Under the pieces are notes generated by a model that did not search any database, had not been told where the DNA came from, and was given only the letters and a program-made list of their open reading frames with translations. Below, in pieces: positions 1 to 50,653 of a DNA stretch of 64,000 nucleotides (its first letter is position 1; each line of letters opens with the position of its first letter). The DNA is taken from IMG/VR virus record IMGVR_UViG_3300045988_065173, positions 13,917 through 77,916 of that record; one strand, written 5' to 3'. This DNA comes from a virus. A program made the position numbers and the translations under genes.

Positions 1-197
1 ATATGAACATCTACAGATGACCCATCCTTTTTATATAACTTTAATGTTTCATCTTCGTATATTCCACTTTCAATTACATTATTATCTAATTCTTCTATGT
101 TCCTACTTATATAATCTTCTACTTCCATTCCAGAATGACCGTCCCATTCTGTTTCTAAGCTAGTAATTTGATTAGGTAAATCTTCAAATTTTGCCAT
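1..197 (-). CDS. hypothetical late protein; ATG at 197-195, 3' end runs off the window
   Basis: Minus-strand ATG at 197-195 followed by a stop-free frame to the window edge (MAKFEDLPNQITSLETEWDGHSG...). Confidence 0.4.
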   Translation of the reverse strand, partial: MAKFEDLPNQITSLETEWDGHSGMEVEDYISRNIEELDNNVIESGIYEDETLKLYKKDGSSVDVH

Positions 198-202
198 TGT
201 TT

Positions 203-428
203 CAAATTAATTATTTTTCCATAAATCATCTTTTAACCAGGGTCTATCAGGTAACCATGTACCGCTACCAAAACAGCTTCTAACAGCATCATATACGGTA
301 AGCCAGACTAACTACGACCCTTTATATATAGCTCCAATGTTTTTTTGTACTCTTTGCTATACTTGGTCTACAAGTTCTAGAATATCTTTCTGAACCTACA
401 ATATTAATTTACCATTTCTATATATCAT
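203..428 (-). CDS. small late protein; 4 in-frame TAG codons read as sense
   Basis: ATG at 428-426 overlaps the TGA of the upstream gene (ATGA overlap). Frame is open to a TAA at ~203 only if TAG is decoded. Confidence 0.4.
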
Positions 429-778
429 AATTTAGCAAAATCTTCTTTGACTTTGGCTTTAATCTCTTTTAATTTACTGAGATATTCTTTGTATTCCAGT
501 AAAGCTTCGGAATCCTCTGTAGGATTCTCTGTATAACTGTTGTATGAATTGATTAAATCAAATTCTTCATCAACAGTAAGAAAACTTCTAACAATTGCCT
601 TTACACAATCCTTATAATTAGGTTGTCCGCTAAGTAAAACCTAGATAAAGTTATACTAAAGCTCTAATTTAGTATCTCCTTCCTAGTCCGTTACTTCAGC
701 TTCGACTTCTTTTATATCATAGTTATAGTAATAAGTACCGTTCCCAAGTTTTTGGATTGTCTGGGGCTAAACGTCCAT
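425..778 (-). CDS. small late protein; 4 in-frame TAG codons
   Basis: ATG at 778-776 and TGA at 427-425. Translation is protein-like (…LLEYKEYLSKLKEIKAKVKEDFAKL) and is interrupted only by TAG. Confidence 0.4.
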
Positions 779-1979
779 TTGTATTCTATTCGGTTCTAAC
801 ATAAGGTGTTACTTTAAAATTTATAGGAAATTTGTATCTAAGCAAAGAATAATGTAATTTCTTATTCTTGCTTTTAAAATAATAGGGTTTGTTGTTATAC
901 ATAAAGTGCACTCTAAAATGGCTATGATAATCAACTACCTCTATAATGTGAATATACTTATTATAAAACTTAGATATATTGACTTCCTTTCCATTCCAAT
1001 TTGAGAACTTCAAACCAGTCAAAGTTTCTATCTTTTTCAACAAATTCTTAGAATTACAGAATTTCATCCATCCGAAATAAGATCTCATTCTTCTTTCCAA
1101 TTCTTCTCTATCAATCTTATTTTGCTTATATAGATTTATAAGCTTAAACATTCTCATTTTTATAGATTTTCTTAATAGAACGTGAGTGTGGTAAAATTTA
1201 TAGCCTACAAAATCTACTCCTCTACTTTCTACTGGAAATATCTAGTAGTTAGGTTTTAATTCTAAATTAAGAACTTGTTTTAAATACAGTTTTATAGATA
1301 CTAATACATTTCTCAAATAATTCTTGTCATTACCAAGAATCACAATATCGTCAGCATATCGAAAGTAGTACTTACATTTTAACTCCTCTTTTATCCAGTG
1401 GTCAAAATATGTCAGATATAAATTTGCAAAGAACTATGATAGATAGTTCCCAATAGGAACTCCTTTGGCTGAATATATTATTTCCTTCAATAGACTTAAC
1501 AGTTTCTTATCCTTTATTTTCTTCTACAACATCTCATACAGGATGTCATGTGTTATAGATGGATAAAATTTTCTTATATCCATTTTTAGACAGTATTTAG
1601 TTTCATCTGAGTATTTCTACAATACCTTGAATAAATCATACTCTACCTTATGAATCCCTCTATTTCTTATAGAGGAATATGTCTAATCTATAAAAATGCT
1701 GGTCCAGATAGGTTCCATAATATTCATTATAGCATGATGAGTGATTCTATCAGGGTAGTATGGAAGTCTAAAGATTAATCTTTCTTTAGGCTCATATATT
1801 ACAAACGTACTATACTCAGAAGTCTAATAGATTAACTATTTTAATTTGTCTGATAATTTCTTATTTTCTTCTAATCTATTCTTATCATGCTACTTAATAC
1901 CACATCGAATTGATTTATTTCTTCTAGCCTTATCATCAGCTAATTCGATGTTTTTCAAATCATACACTCGTTCGTGCAA
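723..1979 (-). CDS. DGR-type reverse transcriptase with ~11 in-frame TAG codons; alternative GTG/TTG start likely
   Basis: Hand translation of the minus strand gives IYEPKERLIFRLPYYPDRITHHAIMNIMEPIW…TYSSIRNRGIHKV…SQFFANLYL…FRYADDIVILG…VDFVGYKF (RT motifs 1-7 including YADD, DGR-RT-like N-terminal block). The standard-code ORF 786-1157 is only its C-terminal piece and its apparent stop at 788-786 is TAG. The frame continues to TAA at 725-723. An upstream in-frame TAA at 2003-2001 bounds the N-terminus, and there is no ATG before motif 1. Confidence 0.8.
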
Positions 1980-2140
1980 ATATCCTACACGTTTCAATTT
2001 TTATATATTTCATCGGAAGCTTTCGAGATTTAACCTACTAACACCCTTCATTTAACACTACGTTGTCTTTTGCCTAGAGGCAAGGATATCACTTAACAAA
2101 CTAAAAAAAATAAAATAAATTGTTCTAAATATATAATAAC

Positions 2141-2237
2141 TCAACATTGGAATTGGCATTGCTGACGTCATTGTTAGAATTGAAATAGCTAAGACCTGCA
2201 TTGCTACCATTATTCGCATTGCTGCCTACTAGCAGTT
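2141..2237 (-). repeat. DGR template repeat (TR)
   Basis: Minus-strand sequence gaactgctagtaggcagcAATgcgAATAATggtagcAATgcaggtcttagctatttcAATtctAACAATgacgtcagcAATgccAATtccAATgttgag. It is ~85% identical to the two VR copies, and every TR/VR mismatch has an adenine in this copy. In the target reading frame it is rich in AAT/AAC codons. Confidence 0.8.
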
Positions 2238-2310
2238 CTTTTTGCCAACCAACGGCTTTTAGAAGTAATATCCCACGATTTATATCTAAATCGATTTCTA
2301 TATTTTATTC

Positions 2311-4130
2311 TTAAGATACTCTGTTTAGAGTCCTGAACCCAACATAGGAACCGGCATAGCCGACGCCAAGGCCAGAATAGAAATAGCCAAGACCCGCAGT
2401 GCCACCAGAAGCCGCAGTGCCGCCCACCAGCAGCATGCGAAGCGCTGTAGAGCTAGCGTTGCAAGAGTGGTAATCACACATATAAGTTGTAGTTGAGGCT
2501 CCAGTACAAGAAGATGGTATAATCTCTGCTGTCTCTCCCAAGTCAAACTCTTTAATGTATCCATCTTGCGCTACCTCATATCCTGCTATGGTCTTGCTGC
2601 CAATTACGTCAGTAAACTCTTCCTTATTTGTGGTAGTATATACACTACTGATTTCATTTGCCGCAGTTCTTTGAATAACTACTCCATCTAAGTTTGTCCA
2701 AATATCTCCAAATGGATTGTCAAAACCTCTCCAACGTGGTACTTTGAAAGTGTGAGTAGCTACTGTATCTGTTCCGTTTGTTGCAGTACATTCTGGAATA
2801 ACTAAATCTTTGACTCCAGTGAAATTACCAATATCATTACAATAACCACATGGAGTAATAGGATAAGTTCCATTATATCCAGACCAACTTGTAGCAGAGT
2901 TACTCCAGTCTGTAACTCCAGGACCAAGTCCTCCTTGACGATAACCATCAGAGGTAAGCTCGGCATTGTAGGCAGCCTGAGAGTTAAAGTTAGCGTATTC
3001 TATTACATAGTTCCAGTAGAATATCCATTTATAATATTCATAACACAATAATTCAGAGCCTGCATTTGTGGCATAAGTTCTCATATTAGCTCTAGAAACA
3101 TTAGTTCTAGGTTTTCCTAAATCGCTTCTAAAAGCATCTTTGGTATCAAGTTCAGTAGTTAGATACTTATCGAATTGTACTCTATTTCCACCGCCTCTAA
3201 ATGCTTCTGTAGTATTGACCACGGACACAGCTTTAGGGGTTTCTGACACAGTATTGTCAACTGTATTTCTATATGCGTCAATTAATAGTTCTGGTATTTC
3301 TGCCCACGAATCATCAAGCTTTACTAGAGAAATTCTAACCCATCTTTTATTTCCATTAGAGCCTGATTTACCATAAAATTTAGGAGTGTGGACTCTTACA
3401 GTTCCATCAGTTCCATCAAGCACAGAAGGAGTAATTCCATCTTCTTTGTAAGCCCAATCGTCTGGATATAAATAGTAATTTACTACACCGTTATTTGCTA
3501 CACATCCTCTGTAAGCAGACTAAATAGGAAGGGATTTATGTAACAGTGGATTTCCTATTCTAGTAAGGATAGGAGAAGATACAGTGATGTCCCATTCTAC
3601 TCCATAAGAGTATAAGTCTACGTTACTGCTTAACTCTGTGACTTGTTTGCTTAGACTCTATTGTTCTTTTTGTAATTCTTCCCAAGCAGTATTAAGAGCA
3701 TCAAATTGTTCCTCTAACTTAGTACTAGTATCTGCCCACTATGCAGTCCCATCTTCAGAAAAGGTTAAAATCTATCCAAGTGCTCCTCCAGCAGGTATGT
3801 GTTTATTTCCAGAAGTAGTTGGGTGTACATAATTATTTGCATTATCTGCAATACCACTAAGTTTCTGTTTTTCAGTTTCTGTGTAATTAGCTTCAGAAAG
3901 TCCTTTTCCTGATTCCTTATCTACCTTACTTTCCAACTCCGTTTTAGTAGCTAAACCACTTATATCCTAGTGTTCTTTTAAATAATTTTCATCATTCTAT
4001 AACTAAGACACTTTAGTTGGAATGGCACTAGATTTTGCGTATGTCTAATCTATAGCATTTCCAGAGCCATCATAGGTAGCCTTTAAGTCATATACGGTTT
4101 CTCCAACCTTTATAGATTTGATAGCTGCCA
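2311..4130 (-). CDS. tail fibre / receptor-binding protein, DGR target 1; ~8 in-frame TAG codons
   Basis: ATG at 4130-4128 right after the TAA of the upstream gene. N-terminus MAAIKSIKVGETVYDLKATYDGSGN…KVDKESGKGLSEANYTETEKQKLSGIADNANNYVHPTTSGNKHIPAGGALG(Q)ILTFSEDGTA(Q)WAD carries the widespread phage tail-fibre motif, with TAG at positions that are Q/E in that motif. The standard-code ORF 2311-3423 (370 aa, GTG start) is only the C-terminal part. An in-frame TAG sits at 3522-3520. VR1 lies at the C-terminus. Confidence 0.7.
2338..2436 (-). repeat. DGR variable repeat VR1 (C-terminal 33 codons of the tail-fibre gene)
   Basis: Aligned by hand to the TR. All ~15 mismatches are at TR adenines (c,g,t in VR versus a in TR). 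Confidence 0.8.
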
Positions 4131-4132
4131 TA

Positions 4133-7100
4133 TTATTGTATTATTAAAGTTTCTTCTTCTACATTATGATCTATTCTTTCTATGGAGGCAGTTAAGTCTT
4201 CAACAGCTTTCTACAGTTCAGCCTTGGTAGCGTAGTTCTTTAATGTATCTGGGTCTATTCCAGATCCTCCTACATTTCCTCCAACAACTTTTACTGGTTT
4301 TGCTGAGTTCTTAAACTACCCTTCAACCCAAATTGTTCCCATACTATTTAAAATATTAATTGTTCATTTTCTCCATCTACCTGTACATTACCAGAACCAG
4401 GCTATATTGCATCTATTTTCTTCTACAATTCGTCTACAGCAGCCTTTATTAATCCTTCCACCTCAGCTTTTGTATAGTAACGTTCTGTTAGATATTCACT
4501 TCTGACATATCCTGTATCCTATATATCTTTTTCTCCATAAGTACAATAGTACGTATCGTTCTCTGTCCTATTATTTTCAACTAGGTCATCATAATCTGTT
4601 TGTGGAAGACATACCAATTTAGGAACCTCTTCTGTAAGAGCAACTTGCTTTCCAGATGCTAATAATCTATCGTCTTCTGTAGTAAGTTTAACAGAACTTT
4701 CAATAGTCTGTTCAGTTGTTTCATCTTCTGAACTTTCTCCAGTTGTTCTCTATTGTACTTCTTTTTCGACAATTTTCTAAATAGTAATATCAGAAGTTTC
4801 TATAGAGGTTGATTTTAGAAGCTCTGTGCTAAATTCCTTAGAAGCGGCATCCTAATCTTCCTAATATTTCTTCTAAGTAACAAATATAAAATCGTCATCA
4901 CCGGTTTCAGGAGAATCTCCTCTCAAACTTTCTTTTGTCACATACTCCTCTGCTATCTAATTGGAAAGGTCAGTTAATGACTATTGAGTGGCGTATGTAG
5001 ATTGAGCATTTTCTTTTGTAAGAAACTTTTCATCTACCTACGAGCTAGTGTAGTATGCTTTAATATCTTCTGTAGTAACGTAGCTTCCTAGTTTCTATAA
5101 ACCAGAAACAATTTCATCAATCTATGTCTTTGAGTAATAATTAGTAGCAACCCAGGACTAATACTGATGTGTAGTATGGTAATTTTGATCTAAGTACTCC
5201 TTAGTAATATAGACTTTAGCATCATTTGTTACATCATACACATAGTAATATGTGTCAGGTTCTATAGCATCCTCTTCTACCAGTCTTAAATATTCCTCTT
5301 CAGTTAATGTAACCAGATTAGGAACATCTGACATCATGGCGAATTGGTCTTCTCCAACAAACAACCCATTAGATTTAACATCTACTACTAGCTAATCCTC
5401 TTCTCCTACTACTGGAGACTTTATCTATCCTACAGTAATACTTTCTAGGGAACCATCTCCATCTACCTTTAAAGTCTTATCTAGCTCATCTTGGATAGCC
5501 TATTGGTCTTCGTCATACTATTTCTTTGTAACAAAGACAAAATCATCTCCTTCCATTCCTTCTCCTCTAAGACTTTCTTTGGTAACAAATATGTCATCAG
5601 TTTCTTCCTTAGTGTAATGGTTAGACAAGGCTTTAGATAACAAGGATTCTGGGTCCTCTAAATCTAGGTCAGTTTTAGGGGCATAATTCTCAGTTAATTC
5701 TTCAAGGGTAGCATACTTGGAAAGGTTAGAGATTGTCTAGTCTAAATCCGTTCTAATCTGTACGACAGTAGTATTTAGAGCTTTCTATTTCAACTATTCC
5801 TCTATCTTTTTACCCCATTCTGCTGATAAATAAAACTAATCATCATCTAGGCTGTCTTCATATATGTAATAATATGTTTCTGCATGAAGATATGTTTTAC
5901 CTTCGTCTATAGGTTTAAAATCTTCTGTGGTATTCTCAGACCATTCCTTATATTCAGCCTCTGTACAGGTGATTATCTAAATAGATTCATAAGAAGCTTT
6001 CCAACCTTCTTTGTATTTAATCTTAGACTTATCTACTAACATATAAATATTTCCGTTATCTATATTTGAAACGGTCATGCCTTGATAAGCATATTTCTCC
6101 GGAATAGAATATAATTCGTCTAAATTATTGACTACTGTTCTATTATCAAGAGGTTTAGGAGTTTCTACGGTTAAAGCAACACCTAATGTAGCATCACCTG
6201 TATATTTAAATGCCATTATTGTGATAAAGTAAAGTTAATTTGATGAGGCAATGCTGAAGAATAAGTATCCTTCTTAGTCCATACTTTATAAGGAAATCCA
6301 TTTATCTATTCGGTAGAAGTTTCCCAGCCACTTAAATCAACATTTAAGTATCCCAGTCCTCCATCTACTGTAAATGAATTTAGCTAAGTATTACTTCCGG
6401 GTAATTTTATAATAGCCTTTCCACTTAATGAAAATGTAATAATTCCAGAAGATTGTCCAAATGGAACAAGACTCTATTTGATTAAACTATCTGTATTACC
6501 AGAATACCAAGGGTAGGTAGCAGTCACCTATGCTGTAGTTGATATTGAACCAGCTTCCACCCTCTTGTCTGTAGTTTCTCCTTTATTGTTAATAAGATAT
6601 TCTCCAGCAGCATAATTTACAGTACCAGAATGCACATAAACACCAATAGAATCATATATTTCAGATTCTACAGGAGAATCATTATAGGTAATAGTTTCTT
6701 CTCTATCAGTTTCCTCTCCAGCATCATTTTTTATAAATGTTAAGGTAGGGGTAAGTAAAGCGGATCCTACCTCCACAATCTAAGAGGTGAAGCTATAATA
6801 CAACTAAGGATAAACCAAATCTCTAACAACAGTAGGAAATAATAGAGTATCTATAATCTCATTAAACGGCTTTCCTTTCAATTTTTCAACTGTAGTTCCT
6901 TGAATAACAGCAGAAGTGGTATCATCTGGAAGTTCAGTTTGATAAGTAGCTATAGTTTCTAAACTTGTCTATATATTTGTGATATTCTCAGTATTAGAAT
7001 CTACTTTAGAATCAGTGTTCTTCTAAGCTTCCTATACTCCCTTAACTTCTTCCTTTACCTCTGTTAGAGATGGTTCCAGGTCTTTTACATATATTCCAGG

Positions 7101-10100
7101 TAGGACTACTGTAGAAGGCTCTCCTTCCTCCTCTACTGGAGGAATTTCCTACTAAATAAGATGTATTGCGTTATCCTCCTACTAGGATAGAATTACTTCT
7201 AGAGTATTATCATCCTTTATTTCTATGGTTTTGGAGTTTCTTAGACTATTAGTTATCCAATTCTAGATGTTTTTGTCAACATCTATATTTTTGATAGACT
7301 CGTTAATACCCTCTATTGCCTCATTAATCTCGACTATTTTCTCAGAAAGATTGTTTATGCCAGTTCTGTTAGATTCAATTTCTTCTTCAAGTTCTTCCTT
7401 AAGTACAGTAATAGAAGTTCTGATATTACTTATATCAACTTTTATTTCCTCTATTTCTTCTGTATTAGCTTTGTACTAACTTATAAAGAATAAAGCATAA
7501 TCTAAGGCATCTTTTACAGTATTGATATTCTCTGCAACATCACTAGTATAAGTCCATTTCTATTCTATGTACTATACTAAATCTTTCTAGGCTTCTATAG
7601 TTCCTTCTATATTTCCCCAAAGAAGACTCTACTCATCAGCGATACCTAGATTCTTTCTAACCTTAGCTCTTTCTAATTCAGTTCTATATTCTCCAAGATA
7701 GTTGTTTCTTAGGAGAGGTATAGGTTCACTTTTTATTAAATGTCCTTTCTTTCCACAAGGCTTTATATCAGCATTGCTTACCGAAGTGTAAATAGGCTGT
7801 ATCATTATGATTCAATAATTGCTATTTAATAAATTCGTGATTATCTAATTTTACGGGTAGGTTAATAAAACAAATTAGATTCAAAATATCCTAATAATCT
7901 GGTCTATATCCCTTTCTAACCCTTTTAAGGAAATCCTCATACCTTTTAATAGCCTTTCTTTTAAGAGCATCCACAACCTATACGTTTATGTTCATGGTGA
8001 TTGTCACAGAATCCACCGCAAGTGCGGAACATTGCTAACAATCTTTCAGCTTCCATGAATTGTTTAAAGCCTATTAAATAATCTATAATATTAAGTGTCA
8101 TCCAGATAAAATCTCTTGCAAATATATCTGCATCATGTTCTCTAGTTAGACACTTATTTAATAAAAAGTCAAAGAGTTTCTTACAGTAGTTAATATAACA
8201 CTATTGCAGATTTCCTGTAAAGAACACATCTACCTTACATTTTTTGATAGTAGTCCCTTCTATATTCCTTTCAAGGATTTCTTTTACAGTACATTCCTCT
8301 AGCTCTCCATCTACTTCTTTATATAGTTTCTCTCCATCAGTTATATAGATAGTTTCATAATACTCCTTGTATTCATCAGATGAATTTTCATACCATTTCA
8401 TATTAGGAAGAATTATGTGGTCTACTACATAATATCCATCTTCTTTTACCTTAAATGTACAAGAGTCTAAATCCTCTGTATGGTCATTGAGAAGTACGTC
8501 TATCAAAGTAGCATCTCCTATACTAACTTTTATGATAGTATTTAGGGTAGCACTTTCACTATACTTATAAGAATCATAGGAAGTTACTACCTCTAAATCT
8601 TCATCAATATACTATCCATATTCCTTTGAAAAGTCTTCAATAGTTATTTCCCCGTTAATCTGGGTATGTATATCAATACTAAATTCCATATTATAATAAT
8701 TAAGACTCAGTAGTAGGCCATTGACCATATTGAGCAGGGATAGAAAATGGTTTCCACTTACCTTCTTGTCGTATACGTCTAGACATAAAAACTGAACTAA
8801 ATGATAAACTAATATCTTGAGGATAGTCTGTCCATGTATATGACTAACCTTCAGGAGTCGGTGGTAGACTATTTAACTTACCAGCTGGTTCCCCATTCCA
8901 ATAATAATTATAGTCATATGCTTTAGTTGGAGTAACAGTTGTTGTTTCATGTCCTTCCGAATCTACATATAGAGGATTTCCCTCCTCATCTGTTTTCTAC
9001 TTATACTCAATAACTGGAGTTATTCCCTCAGTTCTAGTGTATATGTTCTAAATAATAGTAGAAACATCACTTGCTACAATCTCATAAATAGTAGTTCCCT
9101 GAGATTCGTCAGCTCCCTAGAAAGTAAATTTAGTTCTTTTCCAGATGTATGGATTCTCTTCAGTTGGAAGTTCAAAAGTATCAGTCCACTATTTATTAGA
9201 TAATTTTATCTCAGATTCGTCAGCAGTGTCAGCAGGTAAGTAATGAATCTTAATAATAATATTATTTACCGCCTCACTAGAACCAGAAAGGTCTGACACC
9301 TATTTAAATAGTTTCTTTAAATCTTCTTCCACATTTGATTTGGAACCAGAAGCATTACTAATAATTACTGAACCATCTGAAATAGGATAAATCTATTGCT
9401 AATCCTTATCATATACAATTGTTCCAGTTGCCATATTAATGTATTTGTCTTATTTTGTCATTATACGGATTTCCATCATGAAGCTAAGCCAACTCTATTT
9501 CAGTTCTCTTTTCTTCTATATCCATTTGTCTATCTTTATATGTAGAATCAGATTGAGCTTTGAGCCAGTTAACCTTATATTCTAACTATATTTTCTGCTA
9601 CTCTAATCCTAATCTCTATTCATCCAAGCTTTCTATCTTCTACTAAGCTTTCTATAGTTCTTGCTATAACTGCTGTGCCTATTGTGAAGTTTCTTCCAAT
9701 TTTTCCTATAGCTGCTATAGCTAATTGTTTTCTTCTTTACGAATCTATACTGCTTTCTTAACCTTATATTTAAGGTCTGTAAGACTCTTAGCAGTTAGTG
9801 CCTCAAATATAATGTCAGGATCCATTTGCTGACTTTTAACAAACTCTGGAATAATAGCTTTAATAGTTTGTAAATCTTCCATTACTTCAGAGCTAGAAGT
9901 TATATGGATGTCATAATCAGTAACCGTAAAATATTCTGGAAGCGCTGTAAATATCTGCTGGTATTTATCTCCAAGTATAATAGTACCAGTCAATCCTTTC
10001 TTATATGTTATTTTAGCCTAGTTTAGACTGTCCAATAATATCTCACAAGTGATCAGATCCATCTACTAGAAATAATGCTTGGTTACTATGTAAGAGTTAG

Positions 10101-11548: not shown

Positions 11549-14165
11549 TCATATACAAGCTCCGCAATAGCCTCGTTCGTCTTGTCTATCAGTTCTTTTT
11601 CTTTCATAACATAAATTATGCTGTTCTGGAGGAAGTTTAGTTGCATTATAGTATTTAACTCTTTGTAACTTCCTACTTCTTAATTCTTCCTTTATAAATG
11701 GGAGAAATTCTTCATCAGGTAAATCAGCTATAATGACTAAAGGCATCTCTGACCTATCAAAGTTAAATGATACCTTATAACCAACTGGATCTAGGTTCTG
11801 AATTTCAAGCCCACCTACGTATTCCATTTTGTACAAGTCTCTCATATAACCTAGGATCACTTGTTTCAATTCTGTATGGGTCATCGTATTCATTTTTTTG
11901 TATGTTAGTTTCAAAAGTCTTAGAAGTTGGTATAACCCCAAATCTTTTGATTCCTCTCTCGTCGTAATAATAACCATAATCTTGGAATTGTTCAACTTCT
12001 TTTTCAACAAGCACTGGCTATCTTCCTGACAATTCCTAGTCTGCCAATTCTGTCATTCCTACAGCGGCTACAATATCGAATTTACCTTTATTCTCATCAT
12101 TATATCCAGTAAATTGGTCTAACATTTCTTCAAACCATATAGTATGACAGAAATCCTCAATAAAGGCTGCTGTCAAATCAGTATGTTGTTCTATAATAGT
12201 TTTGGTAGCGGGTGTTCCGTACTATTTAGTAGTTCCATTCTTGACGTCTGTTAGAGTAGCTCTAGGTCTTTTCATAAAGTAGTTTAAACAACCCTTTTCT
12301 CTAGCCCAGGTAATCATACCTACACGAGTAGCTTCTATGTTTATTCTACAATTATAGTATCTAGCTAAACACATAGCTATTTTATAGGCTTCTCTAATGT
12401 CATTAGGTCTGTCTTTATACATAGCAACATACTACGGTTCGTTTAGACCAAATGCTCTTCTTTTTATAGTTATACAGAAATCAGAAGGGTCTCTTGTTTC
12501 TTTTGAAGTTTGACTAGCTCCTATATCAATGCCGTCTATTCCTGCAACATATAAATCATGCATTTCTTTATACGCTGGAGATTCAAATTCTTCTCCCCTT
12601 TCCTCAGCTTCCTATCTAAGTTTATCCATCTACTCTTTATACAAATCAGACCATACAGGATGTTCAAGTATTTTTACTTTTCCGTTAATATTAGGAATCC
12701 ATTTAAAACCATCTATATTATCCTAGGTGTGTTTATTATTTTTATAGAAGTAGTCTATGTATCCAGATTCTGGTCTTGGTCCTATTTTCTTAAGTCTTAT
12801 ATTAGCTAATTGGTCTGCAATAAGAATCTTGTTGAACTTGTTAACACCTTCAAGATTAAATGCTTCTTCTGCATTCCAACATCGTTCGGCACACTTCTTT
12901 AGATAGTCGTCTGGAACTGCTAATAAATTGTCACGCTCTTCCTATAGATACTTTTTATATTCTACTGTATTACACACACCTCTATGGTCCATGTATTCTG
13001 AATTTAGAGACTAGACAAAATATGGAATGAAGAACCCACTTTCAATAGTAGTCCCATCCTGTGTATAATTATGTCTAAATGGAAGAACTTTGTAAGCTTT
13101 TGGATTATAATATATTTTCTTAAGACCTGCTAATGGAGCACCCATATCACCACCAGTACCTCCAAATAACATTGTTCCACGAGGTTTACCCTGAACTTCA
13201 CAAAGCTCTTGTCCCTGCACTACAGCAGTATCTAGTCCAGGCCAAGACCCTGCTTCATCATATATTAATAGGTCAACACGGTCTCCACGAATATTAGATG
13301 CCTTAGCTCCATTTATTCCAACTACTTCTGATTTAAACCCAACATCCTCAAACTGCCCGTTTACCTTAATCTGTTTACCGGACTTCTTTCTTAAGTCTTG
13401 GTCAATCAAACGTAGTTTGAAGAATCCTCCTCCTGTACAAGTATTCAAGAATGTTAAAGCATTATCAAACTTACTAAAAGTACCTTTAAGGAAGGTATCA
13501 TTAAAACAAGTAATCATTACTCTGCTTCTTCTGATTACTGAATACATTCTTGCAGATAAGGATGCATTTATTTCAGAGAATCCAATAGAACGAGCTTTCA
13601 TGAGAGCTGCGTGTTTATGCAGGACTCTAGCCATCTATAGATAATGAAAGAACATATAATGAGATGCGAAAAATATAGGAAAGTCACTACTTGTTCCTTC
13701 TCCAGATGCCTTGTTATCATCAATAATAGGAAGCTAGTAGAAGTTTAGGAAGAAATAGTTATCTCCAGTAATTGTATAACCATTAACAGTCATTCCATAT
13801 TTACATCTTCTATACTATTCCTTCCAAAACTCATTATATCTCTTACTATCTTTTAGATATGGACAATACTTTCCAGTTTTTCTATATACTTCTCTGGTCT
13901 CAGTAAACCAATCTGGGTCGAAGTCAAGACCGTGTGTTTCATCTATTGGTCTATATCCAGTTATTTCATAAGATAAAGTAGGGTCAAATACCTCTATCTT
14001 ATCTCCTCTTTTTACATCCCAATAATCAGCATTTTTGCCTCTTTCCTCTCTTATCTTCTATACTAGTTCTCTAGCTTCTTTGGCATCCTCTTTTTGTTCT
14101 TTCTCTCTTACCTAATCTACTATATTCTAGATTTCTTCAGGTAATATTTTTTTCTTTCTAGGCAT
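11549..14165 (-). CDS. terL: terminase large subunit (TerL), multiple in-frame TAG codons; boundaries approximate
   Basis: ATPase-domain fragment 13011-13634 has a Walker-B-like DLLIYDEAG and a Walker-A-like LMKARSIGFS. The frame reads through TAG at 13013-13011 into nuclease-domain fragments (12222-12422, 11549-12010), and also upstream through TAG at 13637-13635 to an ATG near 14165. Confidence 0.6.
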
Positions 14166-17722: not shown

Positions 17723-18065
17723 ATGTCTAACAGTAATAAAATTACAACATTTGGGTGTCCAATTTTTAAAAATGGGTCGGGCATTCACATTAAAGAGAAG
17801 AACAGAGGCAAATTTACAGCATCTGCTAAGGCTGCAGGATAGTCTGTACAGGAACATGCTAAATCTGTACTAAACAATCCTAATGCTACTCCTCTTCAGA
17901 AGAAGCGTGCTAACTTTGCTAGAAACGCGGCTAAATGGAAACACGAAGATGGAGCTAAGATACATAAACCAAGTGGACATAGATCTATTCTAGATAATGG
18001 ATGGATTCCTACTACTAGATTAAAGAAAGGAAATTATGGATTAATTAAAACAAGAAAGCAATGAA
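17723..18065 (+). CDS. hypothetical protein; 1 in-frame TAG
   Basis: ATG at 17723. Frame open to TGA at 18063-18065 except for one TAG (GGA TAG TCT). Confidence 0.45.
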
Positions 18066-18139
18066 CGCTGTAGTTAAATTAATTAAAGAATTTATACTTA
18101 AGATATATCTTTATTTACTATTTATATTTAATAAGTAAT

Positions 18140-18331
18140 ATGGACTATAATAGAGCAACTCTTTATGCGGCTACTGGTCGTACTTTATTACTCCCTGGCT
18201 GGAAAGGATATTTTTATTGGGACTATACTAAGAATGAATTAAATTTTAGAAATGGAGACTATCATTTAGATAACAAATAGCTCAAGGAGAAAGGAGTTAT
18301 GGAACGTAATGATTGGTATTATATAATATGA
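18140..18331 (+). CDS. small hypothetical protein; 1 in-frame TAG
   Basis: MDYNRATLYAATGRTLLLPGWKGYFYWDYTKNELNFRNGDYHLDNK(TAG)LKEKGVMERNDWYYII. Confidence 0.4.
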
Positions 18332-18382
18332 TAATTAAAGAGGTAATTAAAACAATTGTAGTAACTAAATATAGAATTACTT

Positions 18383-18847
18383 ATGAGTTGGTTTTCTGAA
18401 TTATTTACTTTGGCGGGCAGTCTTTTTAAAGATATTGATTAGAAAGAAGAACCTAAATTAATCTAGATGAAGTATTTTCCGTTTAATGGATTTTCTTATA
18501 TGTCTTGGTGCGGAAATATTATTTATAAAAAAGATAGATATGCTAATATAAAAGAATAGTCTTTGTGGCATGAGAAGATTCATATTCTATAGGCAGCTAA
18601 GAGTTATAAGAGATGGTATTAGTTCTATTTAAGCTATCTTAAATACTGGATTAAAGGTAATCCTATTAGTAATCCTTCTATTAGTGCTTACTATACTATT
18701 CCTTATGAAATGGAAGCCTATGCTAATGAGGACAATCCTAATTACTAGGTAACTAAAGATAGTTATAAAAGATATATTATAAAAGATAGAAAGAATACTT
18801 TTAGAAAGAACAGAAGTAATTGGATTAAGTTTATTAAATAGTTATAA
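18383..18847 (+). CDS. HExxH-motif protein (putative metallopeptidase-like); 6 in-frame TAG codons
   Basis: MSWFSELFTLAGSLFKDID(Q)KEEPKLI(Q)MKYFPFNGFSYMSWCGNIIYKKDRYANIKE(Q)SLWHEKIHIL(Q)AAKSY… contains a WHEKIH (HExxH) motif. Stop codon is TAA. Confidence 0.45.
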
Positions 18848-18854
18848 AAAAATA

Positions 18855-18898
18855 GGCGAGCCTAGAGATTAGGTTCGCCTATTTTTATTTAACATTAT
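18855..18898. terminator. bidirectional rho-independent terminator between convergent genes
   Basis: TAGGCGA…TCGCCTA, a perfect 7-bp stem, flanked by an A-run on the 5' side and TTTTATT on the 3' side. Confidence 0.6.
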
Positions 18899-19112
18899 AC
18901 TTTGTATCATAAGTACAAGTGATTCTATTTATACCATCCTCCCACCAAGGTTTATCTGATGGCTATCTAATACCACTTGGGATGGTTATTGTAGGAGTAG
19001 AAGTTTCTACTATAGCATCTAGTATTTTAAATAATGTATCCAAGTCAAATTCTGGAAATTCATTATGTAAGTTTGTCAATGTCTTTTTAAAGTCTATCAT
19101 ATTTAATATATC
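18885..19112 (-). CDS. small hypothetical protein; 1 in-frame TAG
   Basis: MIDFKKTLTNLHNEFPEFDLDTLFKILDAIVETSTPTITIPSGIR(TAG)PSDKPWWEDGINRITCTYDTKYNVK. Confidence 0.35.
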
Positions 19113-19265
19113 ACACTTAGTCTATTTAATTCATCTAGGTAATCTAGAAACCATTGTTCATTTTGTCTCCCTTCTTCTGCAACAATCTCAATTAAAGATT
19201 CTGCTGCTAGGAGTATAGTTTCAGATAACTCTTTTAAATTTGGCTTAGTTAGTTCGTTGTATTTA

Positions 19266-19580
19266 TCAGTCAAGTTTAACATAATCCATCCAATCTTTTA
19301 TATATGATTTACATTCCTCTAAATCTGGATAGATACTTGCTATAGTGCAACCTGTTTTTGGATTCCTAAAATGATGGAGTTTTGCTTCCTCATTTTTCTC
19401 CTCTTCTATATTTCTATTTAATGTTCTATTCCAGTAGTTGTATTTCTCATCTAGTATTTCCTTATCACATTCTTCCAATATTTTCATATTGGGATTACTC
19501 ATTATTTTGTCATACTTTCTTTTTAAATTAGAAACTTTGACAACATCATTACCATTCAATACGACTGCACACTGTTTCAT
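19266..19580 (-). CDS. hypothetical protein
   Basis: Intact 104-aa ORF. Confidence 0.5.
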   Translation of the reverse strand: MKQCAVVLNGNDVVKVSNLKRKYDKIMSNPNMKILEECDKEILDEKYNYWNRTLNRNIEEEKNEEAKLHHFRNPKTGCTIASIYPDLEECKSYIKDWMDYVKLD

Positions 19581-19804
19581 TTCAATACCTTATAAGTACA
19601 TATCTTACCTATCTGTTTTCCTTGAACTGTTATTTGTGGAAGAAAATAGCAGGCTTGATTCTCAAATTCTTGAGGTACAAAGATATAATCAAACTTACTT
19701 CCAACTACCTTCTCACAAACTTTATTCCAATCGTCTCCCTCCTCTATAATAAGAGTTTTAGCTCCTGTTGGAGTTATTACATAATTCTCATTTAATTTTA
19801 TCAT
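19577..19804 (-). CDS. hypothetical protein (MIKLNENYVITPTG…)
   Basis: Internal ATG of ORF 19577-19879. The longer N-terminus overlaps the tRNA and is rejected. Confidence 0.45.
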   Translation of the reverse strand: MIKLNENYVITPTGAKTLIIEEGDDWNKVCEKVVGSKFDYIFVPQEFENQACYFLPQITVQGKQIGKICTYKVLK

Positions 19805-19811
19805 AACTATT

Positions 19812-19883
19812 AATTTTGGCGTTGCCCTACTAGGATTCGAACCCAGACTAAATGATTTAGAGTCATCTGTGCTGACCATTACA
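19812..19883 (-). tRNA. tRNA-Sup(CTA), amber suppressor, glutamine-like
   Basis: Minus-strand sequence tgccctatggtgtaatggtcagcacaGATGActCTAaaTCATTtagtctgggttcgaatcctagtagggcaa. Full cloverleaf with anticodon loop c-u-CUA-a-a. The acceptor, D and T arms are near-identical to tRNA-Gln(TTG) at 33768-33839, including U1-A72. Confidence 0.85.
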
Positions 19884-19949
19884 CCATAGGGCAGTAACTT
19901 ATTTCTCTTTTAGAGATTTATTTTCTGCTGCCAATTTCTCTAGTTCTTT

Positions 19950-20432
19950 TCTTAATTGTTCATTTTCGTGAAATAAAGCCTGCATAGTAGCGTTGATATT
20001 AGCTAATAGTATTCTCATTTGAGCAACCTATTCATACATAAGCTTTCAGTTGTTCAATTCTCTTTTTAGCTATATCTGACAATGCCATTTTAAATTTAGC
20101 AATACCAGCTCTTACTGATTCCAATTTTCCACTTTCCAAACATTCTTGAATTTTATTCAATTCGGACTCTCCTAGATATTCGCAGACATCTATAAATAAA
20201 TCATCATCTAAAGATTCTAAGTATTTCTGGAATTTGCCTACTTCTTCATTAGCTAGACAGCTTTCCTCTTTCTATCTTTCATAAGATATTAATAAGAATA
20301 AAGAATCATCTGTGGATTCCGCTTTAATGGTTAGACCATTACTTGATAGATAATACTCCTAGTTCTTATTAATTGCATCAACGAGATTCTTAAACTCGTC
20401 CTAATTTAGTAATGTTTCTAAGTCTGTAATCA
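19950..20432 (-). CDS. first gene of the late transcription unit; several in-frame TAG codons
   Basis: ATG at 20432-20430 (MITDLETLLN(TAG)DEFKNLVDAINKN(TAG)EYY…). Frame is open to TGA at 19952-19950 only when TAG is read through. Confidence 0.45.
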
Positions 20433-20483
20433 TAATTGTTTCTTTTTTAGTTATATACAACAATACCTTCTGAAAAGTTAAAT

Positions 20484-20491
20484 ACAAAGTT
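20484..20491 (-). promoter_or_regulatory. Bacteroides-type -7 promoter element (TAnnTTTG) for the late transcription unit
   Basis: Minus-strand TAACTTTG sits ~50 nt upstream of the ATG at 20432. Confidence 0.3.
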
Positions 20492-20561
20492 AAAAAATTC
20501 TAATTCTAATATTATACATATTTCATTTAGTTATCCGTAAATGGGTACAGGTACTTTATAT

Positions 20562-20582
20562 AAATAGCCCCCTGGGGGTTTA
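20562..20582. terminator. hairpin terminator (CCCCCTGGGGG) downstream of the HNH gene
   Basis: agCCCCCtgGGGGGttt, followed by T/A-rich runs on both strands. Confidence 0.4.
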
Positions 20583-20595
20583 ATAAATTCGGAAT

Positions 20596-21447
20596 TTAGA
20601 AATTAGAAATATTATTATATAAATCAGAAATTAATTTTTTAAATTCTTCTGTGGTCATATCATTCTTAGCAACATTTACTCTGGTAGTTGTGATAACAAT
20701 ATTTCCTTCTACGTACCCCAAATTACTATCTATTCTATCTATTGAGTAATCTTCGTAATTTTCTGGAATTAATCCAGTATAATAATCCTTATATTCTTGC
20801 TTTAATAATAATGATTCAATATAATCTTCAGTAATTGAATATTCTATATATCTAGAACTTTTCTTTGCTCTATTTTCTGATTTATATCTTAAATGTTTTG
20901 CAATTTTCTCTGATTGTGTTTCAGATTTTTTATGTGCTTTTTCTTGGGAGGTAATTGATCGATACCCTTTATTTTCTATATAAACCGCATTCTCTGGAAT
21001 CAAAGAAATATATGAATAATTATTTAGTATTCCAAATATTGAAGACTCGTTATTATAAACTCGTAATATTCCATCTATTGTTCTTTTTAAATTTCCGCAG
21101 TTTTCATTCCCATTTACTCTTCTAGCTATTTCTTTTCTAGATAAATCTTCTGTTATATTCTGCTCTATACATCTTAACAAGAATCCCTTTTGAGCGTTAG
21201 TTAATTTTTCATTTAATATAAAGTTTGGACATGGATAATCCTTTAAAATTTTATATCTATTGTAAAAACCGTTAATAGTATGGTTCTCTACATAATTTAG
21301 ATCTACTAATTCTTTTAACATCTTAGGAATATCATTTTTTGATATTCCGAACTTTTTATTTAGTTCACAAGTACTAAAGTGAGCTAAATCTTCTTTTCCT
21401 TTGTATGCGTTTATTATCGCAAATAATAAATTTAGATTTCTTTTCAT
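20596..21447 (-). CDS. HNH homing endonuclease with N-terminal DNA-binding region
   Basis: C-terminal IDRIDSNLGYVEGNIVITTTRVNVAKNDMTTEEF (HNH-type H-N-N). Intact in the standard code. Confidence 0.65.
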   Translation of the reverse strand: MKRNLNLLFAIINAYKGKEDLAHFSTCELNKKFGISKNDIPKMLKELVDLNYVENHTINGFYNRYKILKDYPCPNFILNEKLTNAQKGFLLRCIEQNITEDLSRKEIARRVNGNENCGNLKRTIDGILRVYNNESSIFGILNNYSYISLIPENAVYIENKGYRSITSQEKAHKKSETQSEKIAKHLRYKSENRAKKSSRYIEYSITEDYIESLLLKQEYKDYYTGLIPENYEDYSIDRIDSNLGYVEGNIVITTTRVNVAKNDMTTEEFKKLISDLYNNISNF

Positions 21448-21722
21448 TTTTAATCAAATTTAATTGTTCAATATTTATCTATGCTAGATTACTCAAAATA
21501 TCCTGAGGGGTAAAGTTAAAATTTTCGAAATCAGGAATATGCTTCTAATGTTAATATTTTTATAACGGACTGGGCTTTTATCATAAACTATACATGTAAA
21601 ATTAACATAGTGGCTGTAGAGCCGGCCTACAACCCCTTTAGTCCCCCCCTGTATATTGATATAAAACTAAAACAAAAACAAAAGTAACTCATAGTAATAA
21701 CAAATTAAAAATTTTTAGTATT

Positions 21723-22169
21723 ATGACACTCGAAGAATTAAAGAACAGTAATCTCAGCGTAGAAGAACGTGCTAAATCAGTGGTAAACTCATTAGGTTTG
21801 GAAGGTAATGAACGTTCAGTTGTTGTCGGCTTGAAGAAAGGCGATAAGTTCCAGATTGTTGCTATGAATAAAATGGAACTGACAAACAATACACAAAGAG
21901 AAGGACAAGCAAAGTTTGTGCCTATCACTTTCACAACTGACAGTGGTGCATCAATCGGAGCTAAACACTTCGCTGGCGTGACTATCGACGACGAAGCTCC
22001 TGCTATTGGTTCTACTCCTTTGGAAAATGCAAATTTCCTTGTTTGGTGCATAGACCACAAAGTAACATTTGTGGTTAAAAGCATCACCTCTGAGGACATC
22101 GAAGCACACGGAAATGTTCCGGCTTATACCAAAAGAACTTACAAACTTGAGGTTGAGGATTACGAGTAA
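21723..22169 (+). CDS. hypothetical protein (first gene of the plus-strand block)
   Basis: 148-aa ORF ending in TAA. Confidence 0.55.
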   Translation: MTLEELKNSNLSVEERAKSVVNSLGLEGNERSVVVGLKKGDKFQIVAMNKMELTNNTQREGQAKFVPITFTTDSGASIGAKHFAGVTIDDEAPAIGSTPLENANFLVWCIDHKVTFVVKSITSEDIEAHGNVPAYTKRTYKLEVEDYE

Positions 22170-49150: not shown

Positions 49151-50199
49151 ATGGATTTCATCGCAACTAGAGTTAGTGAACTCCTAGAAAAGGTTTCACC
49201 CATTAGACGATGGCTTATTTCTGATGTTGCGAATGAATACTACCGTGAAGGTTATCAAGATGGTCAGAAGCTAGTCTATAGAAATGTATTGAAAGGTAAC
49301 GCATTGAAAGAGTTTATTGAAATTCTTAATCATTGCGGAATCAAATTGAGTTACAATCTGCGGAAAGGAGGTTTAATTGTCAGTGTGAGACCTGACAAAC
49401 TTCCCAATCTGCAACGTCTCGTTGAATGTTATAAAAATGAAAGTAAAGAAGACAAGAAATTTCAGTGATGCCCCACCTCTTGATGTTCAGTATAACTACA
49501 TCATGGAGAACTTTGACTTTGACAAGGTTCTAGAATATATGAGTTGGGACAAGAGTCATAGAACATATGACGATGATGGGAAATGTGTAGGAAAGTCTCC
49601 TTGGAGGATGTATATAAGTCCTGGAGAGTATAGAGTTCCATCTATTTCTGACCTAAGAACACTAGCTAGAGACTTACTTACGCAAGTAATAAGAAATTAT
49701 AGAAACAGTAAATCAACATTTGTTTCTATATCTACTGGACCATTTAAGGCTATGTGTAGATATGGTATGCTAGAGTTGGTTGGTGTTATAGAATCTTGGA
49801 GCGATGATTGAGTTCAATGAAGTGTTCTGTTTAGATTTAAAAGATGATTTTGAGGAATTAGGAAGGCATGAGAGAAATTTCGAGCTAGATGAGTTCATTC
49901 AGAAGGATTTGAGTAGAGCTTTTGCTTTTGGTTATTGTCACTTAGATTGGATAAAAGAAAAAATGTGGTTTCCAGTCTCTATTAGAAAAGCCTTGAGGCA
50001 TCTTGGGGATAACTTGGAAGACTTCATTCCACAAATTAAGTGGCTTAATGAGAAGTATGGAGCTGTAGGAAAGAGAGTTAGAATAAGTGATTATGCAAAC
50101 TATATTTTAGATAATATATTTTGTGATAATCAAGACGACCTGCTAAAGATAGCAATACTACTAGGAACTAATCTCAGGACTAATACTCAGAATGAGTAA
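49151..50199 (+). other. three consecutive small hypothetical genes (49151-49468, 49422-49811, 49804-50199)
   Basis: Intact overlapping ORFs of 105, 129 and 131 aa. Confidence 0.45.
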
Positions 50200-50653
50200 T
50201 TTAGAGGTCTTTACTGATGGAGCTTTTAGTTCATCTAGAAACACAGGAGGAGTAGGAGTTGTATTCGTAATTGATGGGAAAAAGTCCTATGAATTTAGCA
50301 AGATGATTCCAAATACTACTAACAACAAATGTGAGTTGTTAGCTGTAATATATGCTCTTAATGCAGTAAGTCGTAAGATAGAATCTCTTACCATCTATTC
50401 AGATTCTCAGTATGTCATAGGATGTGCTACAAAAGGATGGAAAAGAAAAAAGAATGTAGAGTTGTGGAACTTATATGACAAAGTCTTTGCTAAGGCAAGC
50501 CAGTTTTGTCCTGACATAAAATTTTGTTGGGTTAAAGGACACACTTCAAATTCCGATTTCTTTTCTGAAATGAACAATTTAGCAGATAAATTAGCAGTTG
50601 AAGCAAGTCAAGAATATGAAACTAAGAAAGAACAAAAACAAGAGACTCATTAA
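50192..50653 (+). CDS. rnhA: ribonuclease H (RNase HI)
   Basis: TDGA…NN.CELLAV..AL…IYSDSQYV…KGW…W…VKGH…N..AD.LA pattern. Confidence 0.75.
   Translation: MSNLEVFTDGAFSSSRNTGGVGVVFVIDGKKSYEFSKMIPNTTNNKCELLAVIYALNAVSRKIESLTIYSDSQYVIGCATKGWKRKKNVELWNLYDKVFAKASQFCPDIKFCWVKGHTSNSDFFSEMNNLADKLAVEASQEYETKKEQKQETH

Follow-up and report, generated by a model that had tools for sequence, protein, structure and literature searches.

A stretch of 64,000 nt from a virus (positions 13,917 to 77,916 of the IMG/VR record IMGVR_UViG_3300045988_065173), referred to below as the window and numbered from its first letter, very probably carries an active diversity-generating retroelement (DGR) of a presumably Zeta-type crAss-like gut phage, in which one template repeat (TR) serves at least two target genes. 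In the mechanism proposed here, an RNA with the TR and a structured 3′ spacer resembling the RT-17 family would be transcribed from the minus strand, and the reverse transcriptase (RT) would be translated only when amber-suppressor tRNAs of the phage read its nine TAG codons as glutamine (Gln). The complementary DNA (cDNA) would then replace a variable repeat, VR1, in the C-terminus of the adjacent tail-fibre gene, and also a second one, VR2, in a small gene that lies 26.5 kb away on the other strand, within a non-recoded and apparently non-structural block. At the level of assembled sequence, TR-to-VR transfer and its adenine specificity are shown by comparative data from related genomes. A first-pass annotation of the window had already read the cassette of tail-fibre gene, TR and RT gene as a DGR, and the adenine-specific mismatches, the DGR-type RT, the order of the elements, the tail target and the variability of the VR on which that reading depended all held. 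It had mentioned neither the amber recoding of RT and target genes, nor the structured spacer RNA, nor the remote VR2.

Adenine-specific transfer into the tail-fibre gene

2138..2235, minus strand: template repeat (TR), non-coding, 30 adenines; 10 AAY codons when read in the frame of the target
2336..2433, minus strand: VR1, C-terminal variable repeat of the tail-fibre gene, spanning codons 567-599 of 606
2311..4131, minus strand: target gene 1, tail (fibre) protein, 606 aa with 8 in-frame TAG in its translation

The TR (2235..2138) and VR1 (2433..2336) aligned on the minus strand over 98 nt without gaps, with an identity of 75.5% (74/98). All 24 mismatches fell at TR adenines, 24 of the 30 adenines being hit (hypergeometric p=1.3e-17). 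The first-pass annotation had estimated ~85% identity and ~15 differences, neither of which was correct, and had placed the ends of the repeats 2-3 nt off, but the repeat itself is real, and the claim that every difference lies at a TR adenine was borne out when A-site and non-A mismatches were tabulated. The TR is also rich in AAT and AAC codons, as had been noticed: read in the target frame (CTG CTA GTA GGC AGC AAT GCG AAT AAT GGT AGC AAT GCA ...), it comprises the 10 AAY codons, 7 codons with a single adenine whose mutation changes the amino acid, and 3 more with a silent adenine in the third position. No stop codon can be reached by mutating the adenines of any of these codons, and the theoretical diversity amounts to ~9.4e15 peptides per VR.

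Residues 133-602 of target 1 matched the PHROG family phrog_5302, annotated as ‘tail protein’ (1.8e-84), in agreement with the tail-fibre label given earlier. VR1, previously described as the last 33 codons of this gene, is C-terminal but not literally last, as the gene continues for seven more codons (RTLNRVS). Searched by sequence against the PDB, the C-terminus of target 1 gave chance matches only (E>1), a result uninformative on a lectin fold. The target 1 stop codon and the TR are separated by only 75 nt, and the TR ends 170 nt upstream of the RT start, which gives the order target-VR, TR, RT that had been reported for the cassette.

Related genomes were then compared. Scanning IMG/VR with the TR pattern, in which A was replaced by N, returned two contigs with the same TR and a different VR1, while a search based on the RT protein returned 79 loci. 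Variability of the VR at TR-A positions had been named beforehand as a test, and in about 30 related genomes the TR was kept while VR1 differed in all. In detail, the TR was identical in 23 of the 30 related genomes where it was located, VR1 was distinct in 31/31 genomes (window included), and VR2 was distinct in 28/29. TR-VR1 mismatches were 583 at A sites vs. 20 at non-A sites (27 genomes), and those between TR and the VR2 core were 553 vs. 3 (25 genomes). The base spectrum at TR-A sites did not differ between the two targets, with G at 49 and 48%, A at 27 and 26%, T at 15 and 17%, and C at 8 and 8% in VR1 and VR2, respectively. A TR that is nearly invariant, together with VR1 copies that all differ and do so almost only at A sites, argues that the element is active.

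Further, four T/C polymorphisms of the TR co-varied with both VRs, the pattern being (C,C,C) in 23-25 genomes whereas two, the window among them, had (T,T,T), and a G-to-A change in the TR of one genome (L001) was mirrored in the VR1 of that genome. This mirroring of TR polymorphisms in the VRs of the same genome indicates repeated TR-to-VR transfer and disfavours ordinary divergence.

Deviations from the common pattern were seen at a few loci. In two of them, L049 and L071, A-to-N changes of the kind seen in VRs were present in the TR itself (~3230-3330 in locus coordinates), affecting its 5′ end in the former and its 3′ half in the latter; this suggests occasional transfer of cDNA or of VR sequence to the TR that would erode the template. 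In another (L056), VR1 matched the TR only over the 3′ ~60 nt and the 5′ part of the target C-terminus was different, and thus VR length varies between target alleles.

A second, remote target gene

28764..28861, plus strand: VR2, second variable repeat from the same TR, on the strand opposite to the cassette
28419..28979, plus strand: target gene 2, 186 aa, no TAG, member of phrog_11581 (no assigned function)

When the whole window was scanned with the TR ignoring adenines, VR2 was the single further match. It had 22 A-site mismatches and 4 non-A mismatches, the latter confined to the extreme edges (three 5′ and one 3′, shared by almost every genome), with a core at 28769-28859 that carried none. 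VR2 encodes residues 116-148 of target 2, and 38 residues follow. The target 2 protein was found in 39 IMG/VR contigs at 70-91% identity, and across these 39 genomes 29 of the 30 TR-A columns of VR2 were variable, most of them with all four bases, while the flanks were almost invariant; the variable non-A columns were mainly the TR’s own T/C polymorphisms.

The family of target 2 is large. It comprised 832 clusters at 90% identity in the protein database, two of which held 1393 and 235 distinct sequences, and among 30 members aligned from these two clusters variation occurred essentially only at 11 VR-coded positions. An exhaustive search yielded 210 clusters at 50% identity, nearly all with members of 150-215 aa, and the family signature reads KTFEDA...ALN.G...YYPW...[VR]...G.L.C.SxEIA. 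In a sister lineage, whose RT is ~70% identical and whose TR is different, the VRs matched the lineage’s own TR and lay in homologues of target 2. Proteins of the same signature were found directly upstream of TR and RT, that is, in the position of the primary target, in two distant DGRs (L116 and L120) with RTs 52-56% identical to that of the window. One contig of the sister lineage (L125) carried two genes of the target 2 family 4.8 kb apart (107-153 and 4908-4954), each with a VR matching the TR of that lineage.

In a profile comparison with hhalign, the likeness between target 1 and the target 2 family was limited to 37 VR-coded residues, which indicates that two unrelated scaffolds carry one variable segment. 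An AlphaFold2 model of target 2, computed from a diverse alignment of 43 sequences, reached a predicted local distance difference test (pLDDT) score of 91, and replaced an earlier model from 37 close homologues that was discarded (pLDDT 46). No structural match to the predicted model was found in the PDB, a C-type lectin or immunoglobulin (Ig) fold included, and as modelled the scaffold is not recognisable as either.

That the retroelement is a relic, with a cassette now inactive and VR differences that are frozen history, is improbable. Loss of targeting does occur, since VR2 has decayed in one relative (L072/L034), the case for activity is an indirect one built on assembled genomes, and the same question is raised for some TR-VR pairs in a study of Zeta crAss-like phages (PMC12386605). 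Nevertheless, under the phage code the RT reading frame is unbroken, both in the window and in dozens of relatives, and among ~30 genomes whose RTs are 87-96% identical and whose TRs hardly differ, each has a different VR1 and VR2. Changes outside the A sites are almost absent (the 3 vs. 553 of VR2), which is unlike an old frozen sequence, and the sampled members of the target 2 cluster with 1393 distinct sequences differ essentially only at VR codons.

Even less probable is it that VR2 is a passive copy, kept VR1-like by recombination or gene conversion without being a target of retrohoming. A common 98-nt repeat makes homologous exchange conceivable, and the restriction of the likeness between the two proteins to the VR-coded residues would fit it. 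Against this, many A sites distinguish VR1 from VR2 within one genome (roughly twelve in the window), the A-site substitutions of VR2 are its own in each genome, the boundaries of VR2, with the 5′ and 3′ non-A edge mismatches, are unlike those of VR1, and in L116 and L120 small proteins of the same architecture themselves occupy the primary-target position. Retrohoming into both genes from one TR remains the preferred reading. In the genome with the decayed VR2 (L034/L072, IMGVR_UViG_3300045988_058615), TR and VR1 are intact and VR2 has 13 non-A mismatches and an indel; it seems that the DGR of this relative no longer targets the second gene.

Target 2 lies outside the structural recoded block, among tRNA genes and two genes for PD-(D/E)XK endonuclease-like proteins, and a membrane-protein gene overlaps its stop codon; as judged from the sequence, this context would neither mark the protein as a virion component nor exclude it. 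Tentatively, and at a likelihood that we put below even, the family may represent widespread small DGR variable proteins that carry the VR on a non-lectin, non-Ig scaffold, so that a non-virion protein, e.g., an intracellular or early binder of variable host factors, defence proteins among them, would be diversified in parallel to the tail fibre.

Several features of this region were recorded in addition. The gene just upstream of target 2 (27843-28307, plus strand) shares the N-terminal region of the family (hhalign probability 83%, E 9e-6), but its C-terminus differs and it lacks a VR, which may make it a paralogue that is not diversified. A 64-aa open reading frame (ORF) at 27373-27567 (plus strand) gave a weak Pfam match to Tad2 (Thoeris anti-defence 2) at 20.2 bits, with a cut-off of 25, a hint that the target 2 region could be an accessory or anti-defence region. 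The two endonuclease-like genes (PDDEXK_5; 26123-26521 and 29622-30014, both plus strand) flank target 2, and the former contains an in-frame TAG despite the otherwise unrecoded strand. Downstream, a membrane-protein gene (30489-31007, plus strand) is followed by a gene for a 652-aa protein (31025-32983, plus strand) in which a long coiled region is rich in Ala, Glu and Lys; judged by eye, this protein is flotillin/band-7-like, and it is an unusual phage cargo. An RNase H gene (50192-50653, plus strand; Pfam 4.6e-25) is probably replicative, and its product could also process RNA:cDNA hybrids of the DGR. The cumulative GC-skew minimum lies at ~18000-22000, at the switch between two divergent gene blocks; the orientation relative to a putative replication origin placed there, at ~20-22 kb, is the same for both VRs, but also for nearly every gene, and was uninformative.

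One target 2 variant (P0271, of the P0088 cluster) has an NCBI entry, WP_370841506.1, as a hypothetical protein of Gemmiger formicilis, and occurs on a contig of 484 kb. It is either a hint to the host (Clostridia rather than Bacteroidota), an integrated copy, or a contamination from assembly or binning.

The recoded reverse transcriptase, the spacer RNA and accessory functions

723..1967, minus strand: DGR reverse transcriptase gene, 414 aa, GTG start at 1967, TAA end at 723, 9 in-frame TAG
19821..19893, minus strand: suppressor tRNA, anticodon CUA (ARAGORN), needed to translate RT and target 1
23289..23359, plus strand: second suppressor tRNA, anticodon CUA (ARAGORN)
1999..2087, minus strand: structured RNA element in the TR-RT spacer, resembling Rfam RT-17/RT-18
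2318..2331, minus strand: weak hairpin with a 5-bp stem (ACTCT-AAAC-AGAGT), which begins 5 nt beyond VR1

Translation of the RT could alternatively begin at a conserved in-frame TTG at 1979. The protein contains the motifs IYEPKERLI, DRITHHAI, IGNYLSQ and YADD, and matched phrog_1423 at 2e-110 and, in Pfam, RVT_1 only (2e-18). RTs of the DGR clade have [I/L/V]GxxxSQ where those of introns and retrons have QGxxxSP. Among all PDB sequences the best match was the 328-aa RT of 8ub7 (8ub7-8ube), at 7.4e-45 over residues 37-318, which we take to be bRT of the Bordetella phage BPP-1, as the length, the SQ motif and the YMDD box fit; ~96 C-terminal residues extend beyond the region that aligns to it. 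Retron and group II RTs in the PDB scored 2e-15/1e-15 or weaker, ~30 orders of magnitude behind. The DGR-like motifs named in the first-pass annotation are thus present, and the protein lies far nearer to the 8ub7 RT than to RTs of group II introns, retrons or defence systems. By the GxxxSQ motif and the similarity scores, rather than by phylogeny, the RT would belong to the DGR clade. That it is of another class (group II intron, retron, defence or anti-defence), with a coincidental A-biased repeat, is scarcely credible: a group II intron RT/maturase was indeed the top NCBIfam model and Pfam gave no more than the general RT family, but the group II intron, retron and Drt models all scored far below their cut-offs (112.7 vs. 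300, 69 vs. 235, and 59 vs. 200, respectively), every intron or retron RT trailed the 8ub7 RT by 30 orders of magnitude, the protein has GxxxSQ, the adenine pattern has p=1e-17, and the TR-VR-RT arrangement is conserved among relatives.

Under the standard code, the RT and target 1 genes are both fragmented, by 9 and 8 in-frame TAG, respectively, and they are open only with TAG read as Gln. With TAG as a sense codon, the minus-strand block from 1 to ~15350 shows a row of long TAG-rich ORFs; genes of this late/structural block have 8-33 in-frame TAG each, which make up a large share of the Gln codons and the majority in most genes (9/11 in the RT, 19/25 and 33/57 in neighbouring genes). In contrast, the plus-strand block from ~20 kb (20000-64000) is essentially TAG-free and follows the standard code, as the plus-strand genes that were checked had no TAG as Gln except for one in a single 696-codon ORF. 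Consistently, ARAGORN found 24 tRNA genes in the window, two of them with the anticodon CUA. The Q of the RT motif IGNYLSQ is itself encoded by TAG (1435-1437 region) and aligns with the conserved Gln of GxxxSQ in bRT, which independently supports TAG as Gln and indicates that the RT cannot be made without suppression, since it terminates ahead of the YADD catalytic box when read in the standard code. With nine TAG codons that need suppressor tRNAs, RT activity is probably limited to late infection, the recoded phase.

In the structured element of the spacer between TR and RT, a P1 hairpin (CCUUGCC-UCUA-GGCAAAA) precedes a conserved GUGUUAGUA...GAAA module. The element matched the Rfam family RT-17 (RF03020) over its full length at 29.7 bits (E=4e-4) and RT-18 (RF03021) at 23.7 bits, while the homologous element of a relative whose RT is 57% identical (L118) reached 42.6 bits with RT-17, above the gathering score. 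Similar to RT-17 and RT-18, the element lies directly upstream of the RT gene and consists of a hairpin, an A-run and then a UGGUAG-like box in a short helix; unlike RT-17, the window copy has a weak internal hairpin and a score below the gathering threshold, and it is treated here as a divergent relative of RT-17, not as a curated member. In 37 distinct spacer sequences, the stem TTGCC/GGCAA occurred with the compensatory variants TTGGC/GCCAA, TTACC/GGTAA, TTTCC/GGAAA and TAACC/GGTTA, and the helix around the conserved TGTTRGTA box varied as GGG/(T)CC, CTG/CGG, TAG/CTA, TCG/CGA and ACG/CGT. This tabulation is a crude regular-expression count rather than a formal covariation test, and one of its stem classes, TTTGC/GCAAA, was rejected as an artefact of the A-run.

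The BPP-1 enzyme bRT needs Avd. The first-pass annotation had seen no Avd-like ORF between target and TR, an interval of just those 75 nt, and none was present elsewhere in the window either. The ORF at 425-802, downstream of the RT, was considered as a substitute for Avd and rejected, as it had no support from Pfam, NCBIfam or the PDB and matched only phrog_11557, a family with no assigned function. Avd is absent from most Zeta crAss DGRs according to PMC12386605, and thus does not appear to be a universal requirement of DGRs. Speculatively, its role may be filled by the ~96 additional C-terminal residues of the RT, by the spacer RNA, or by both.

Signals 3′ of the VRs were assayed as well. 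DNA hairpins 3′ of VR1, VR2 and TR were no better than shuffles, and this includes the hairpin at 2318..2331 (-2.8 kcal/mol); its stem is retained with a different loop in one relative (L055), and it is a possible candidate for a target-recognition element. VR2 lacks even a weak hairpin of this kind. The only consistent 3′ difference between VR and TR, in all VRs examined, was GTYGGG in the VR vs. GTYGAG in the TR. The A of the TR motif is the one TR-A column that was invariant across the 39 VR2 copies, and the VR1 copies examined likewise read GTYGGG; this difference may mark the initiation of mutagenic homing (IMH) site of the VR against IMH* of the TR.

Several points weigh against the mechanism proposed here. 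Avd was not found by Pfam PF05635 among the cassette-flanking ORFs, the ORFs near target 2 and 33 plausible small ORFs of the 64-kb window, a search that leaves ~125 kb of the genome outside. Neither a GC-rich IMH nor a significant hairpin was found 3′ of VR1 or VR2, and the window spacer RNA stays under the RT-17 gathering score (29.7 < 40.4). Base pairing between TR-upstream and TR-downstream sequence, as in the ‘cPRT stop’ duplex of BPP-1 described in a preprint on the bRT-Avd-RNA structure (bioRxiv 10.1101/2023.10.23.563531), was not above shuffled controls in ~70 loci. Further, the activity of the element is deduced from differences between assembled genomes, and the presumed late timing of the RT and the presumed early or non-structural status of target 2 from codon usage, strand and neighbouring genes.

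Relation to known retroelements and biological meaning

The terminase large subunit (TerL) of the phage is 26-29% identical to crAss-like TerLs and 42-45% to those of unannotated gut phages. Contigs of complete-length relatives measure 185-193 kb, and the GC content of the window is 34.9%; a megablast of positions 1-8000 of the window against the phage collection gave no match. According to PMC12386605 (2025), DGRs occur in 18 of 43 Zeta crAss-like genomes (proposed Echekviridae; ~155-190 kb in Table 1), a group marked by many tRNAs and frequent stop-codon recoding, with amber codons in seven RT genes, the GxxxSQ motif, Avd in two phages only, and tail-fibre targets with modelled C-type lectin domains. 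In three phages described there, ctoVY1, cthgQ11 and 3717_85572, the RT has 414 aa, the genome measures 182-189 kb with a GC content of ~34.5-34.8%, and amber recoding and a tRNA-CUA are both present. The window fits this ctoVY1 group by RT length (414 aa), GC content and recoding, and is set beside it by description.

The cassette shares with the Zeta crAss DGRs of that study a tail-fibre target with a C-terminal VR, followed by TR and RT, the 414-aa RT with GxxxSQ, TAG codons in the RT gene, tRNA-CUA suppressors and the lack of Avd. They are described there with one target per cassette, whereas here a second VR lies 26.5 kb off in a small non-fibre gene, and the searched text of PMC12386605 makes no mention of a remote second target or VR for Zeta crAss phages. 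Similar to the prototype DGR of BPP-1 (mtd-avd-TR-brt), the element shows adenine-specific TR-to-VR transfer into a tail-fibre C-terminus, an RT homologous to bRT and a structured spacer RNA between TR and RT. It differs from the prototype in that no Avd was found in the window, the RT has ~96 extra C-terminal residues, two targets are present, a 14-bp GC-rich IMH and a strong cruciform 3′ of the VR are missing, and the RT and target 1 genes need stop-codon suppression.

Phage DGRs with two targets are described in PMC10743442, according to which both targets carry C-type lectin domains and the tentaclins add Ig domains. In common with these, one phage DGR would here serve two functionally different target genes, but target 2 has only 186 aa, is non-lectin and non-Ig by its model and is remote from the cassette. 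According to a large survey (PMC8241571), the majority of DGR targets lack annotation. Within the openly accessible literature, the second target family appears to be undescribed.

The cassette itself, with an amber-recoded RT, a tail-fibre target and no Avd, is already described for this phage group in PMC12386605, and in this respect the window adds little. What it does add is the remote second target on an unrecognised scaffold, and the combination of a suppression-dependent RT with the lack of a detected Avd in the window. One TR would thereby drive two unrelated scaffolds, one of which is a very abundant small protein outside the virion module. The absence of a detected Avd, the long C-terminal extension of the RT and the RT-17-like RNA would together offer a natural system for the question of how cDNA priming and its restriction work without Avd. 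The dependence of the RT on suppressor tRNAs would tie hypermutation to the recoded late phase of infection, and if it is true that target 2 is no receptor-binding protein, phage DGRs would serve purposes beyond host-range switching.

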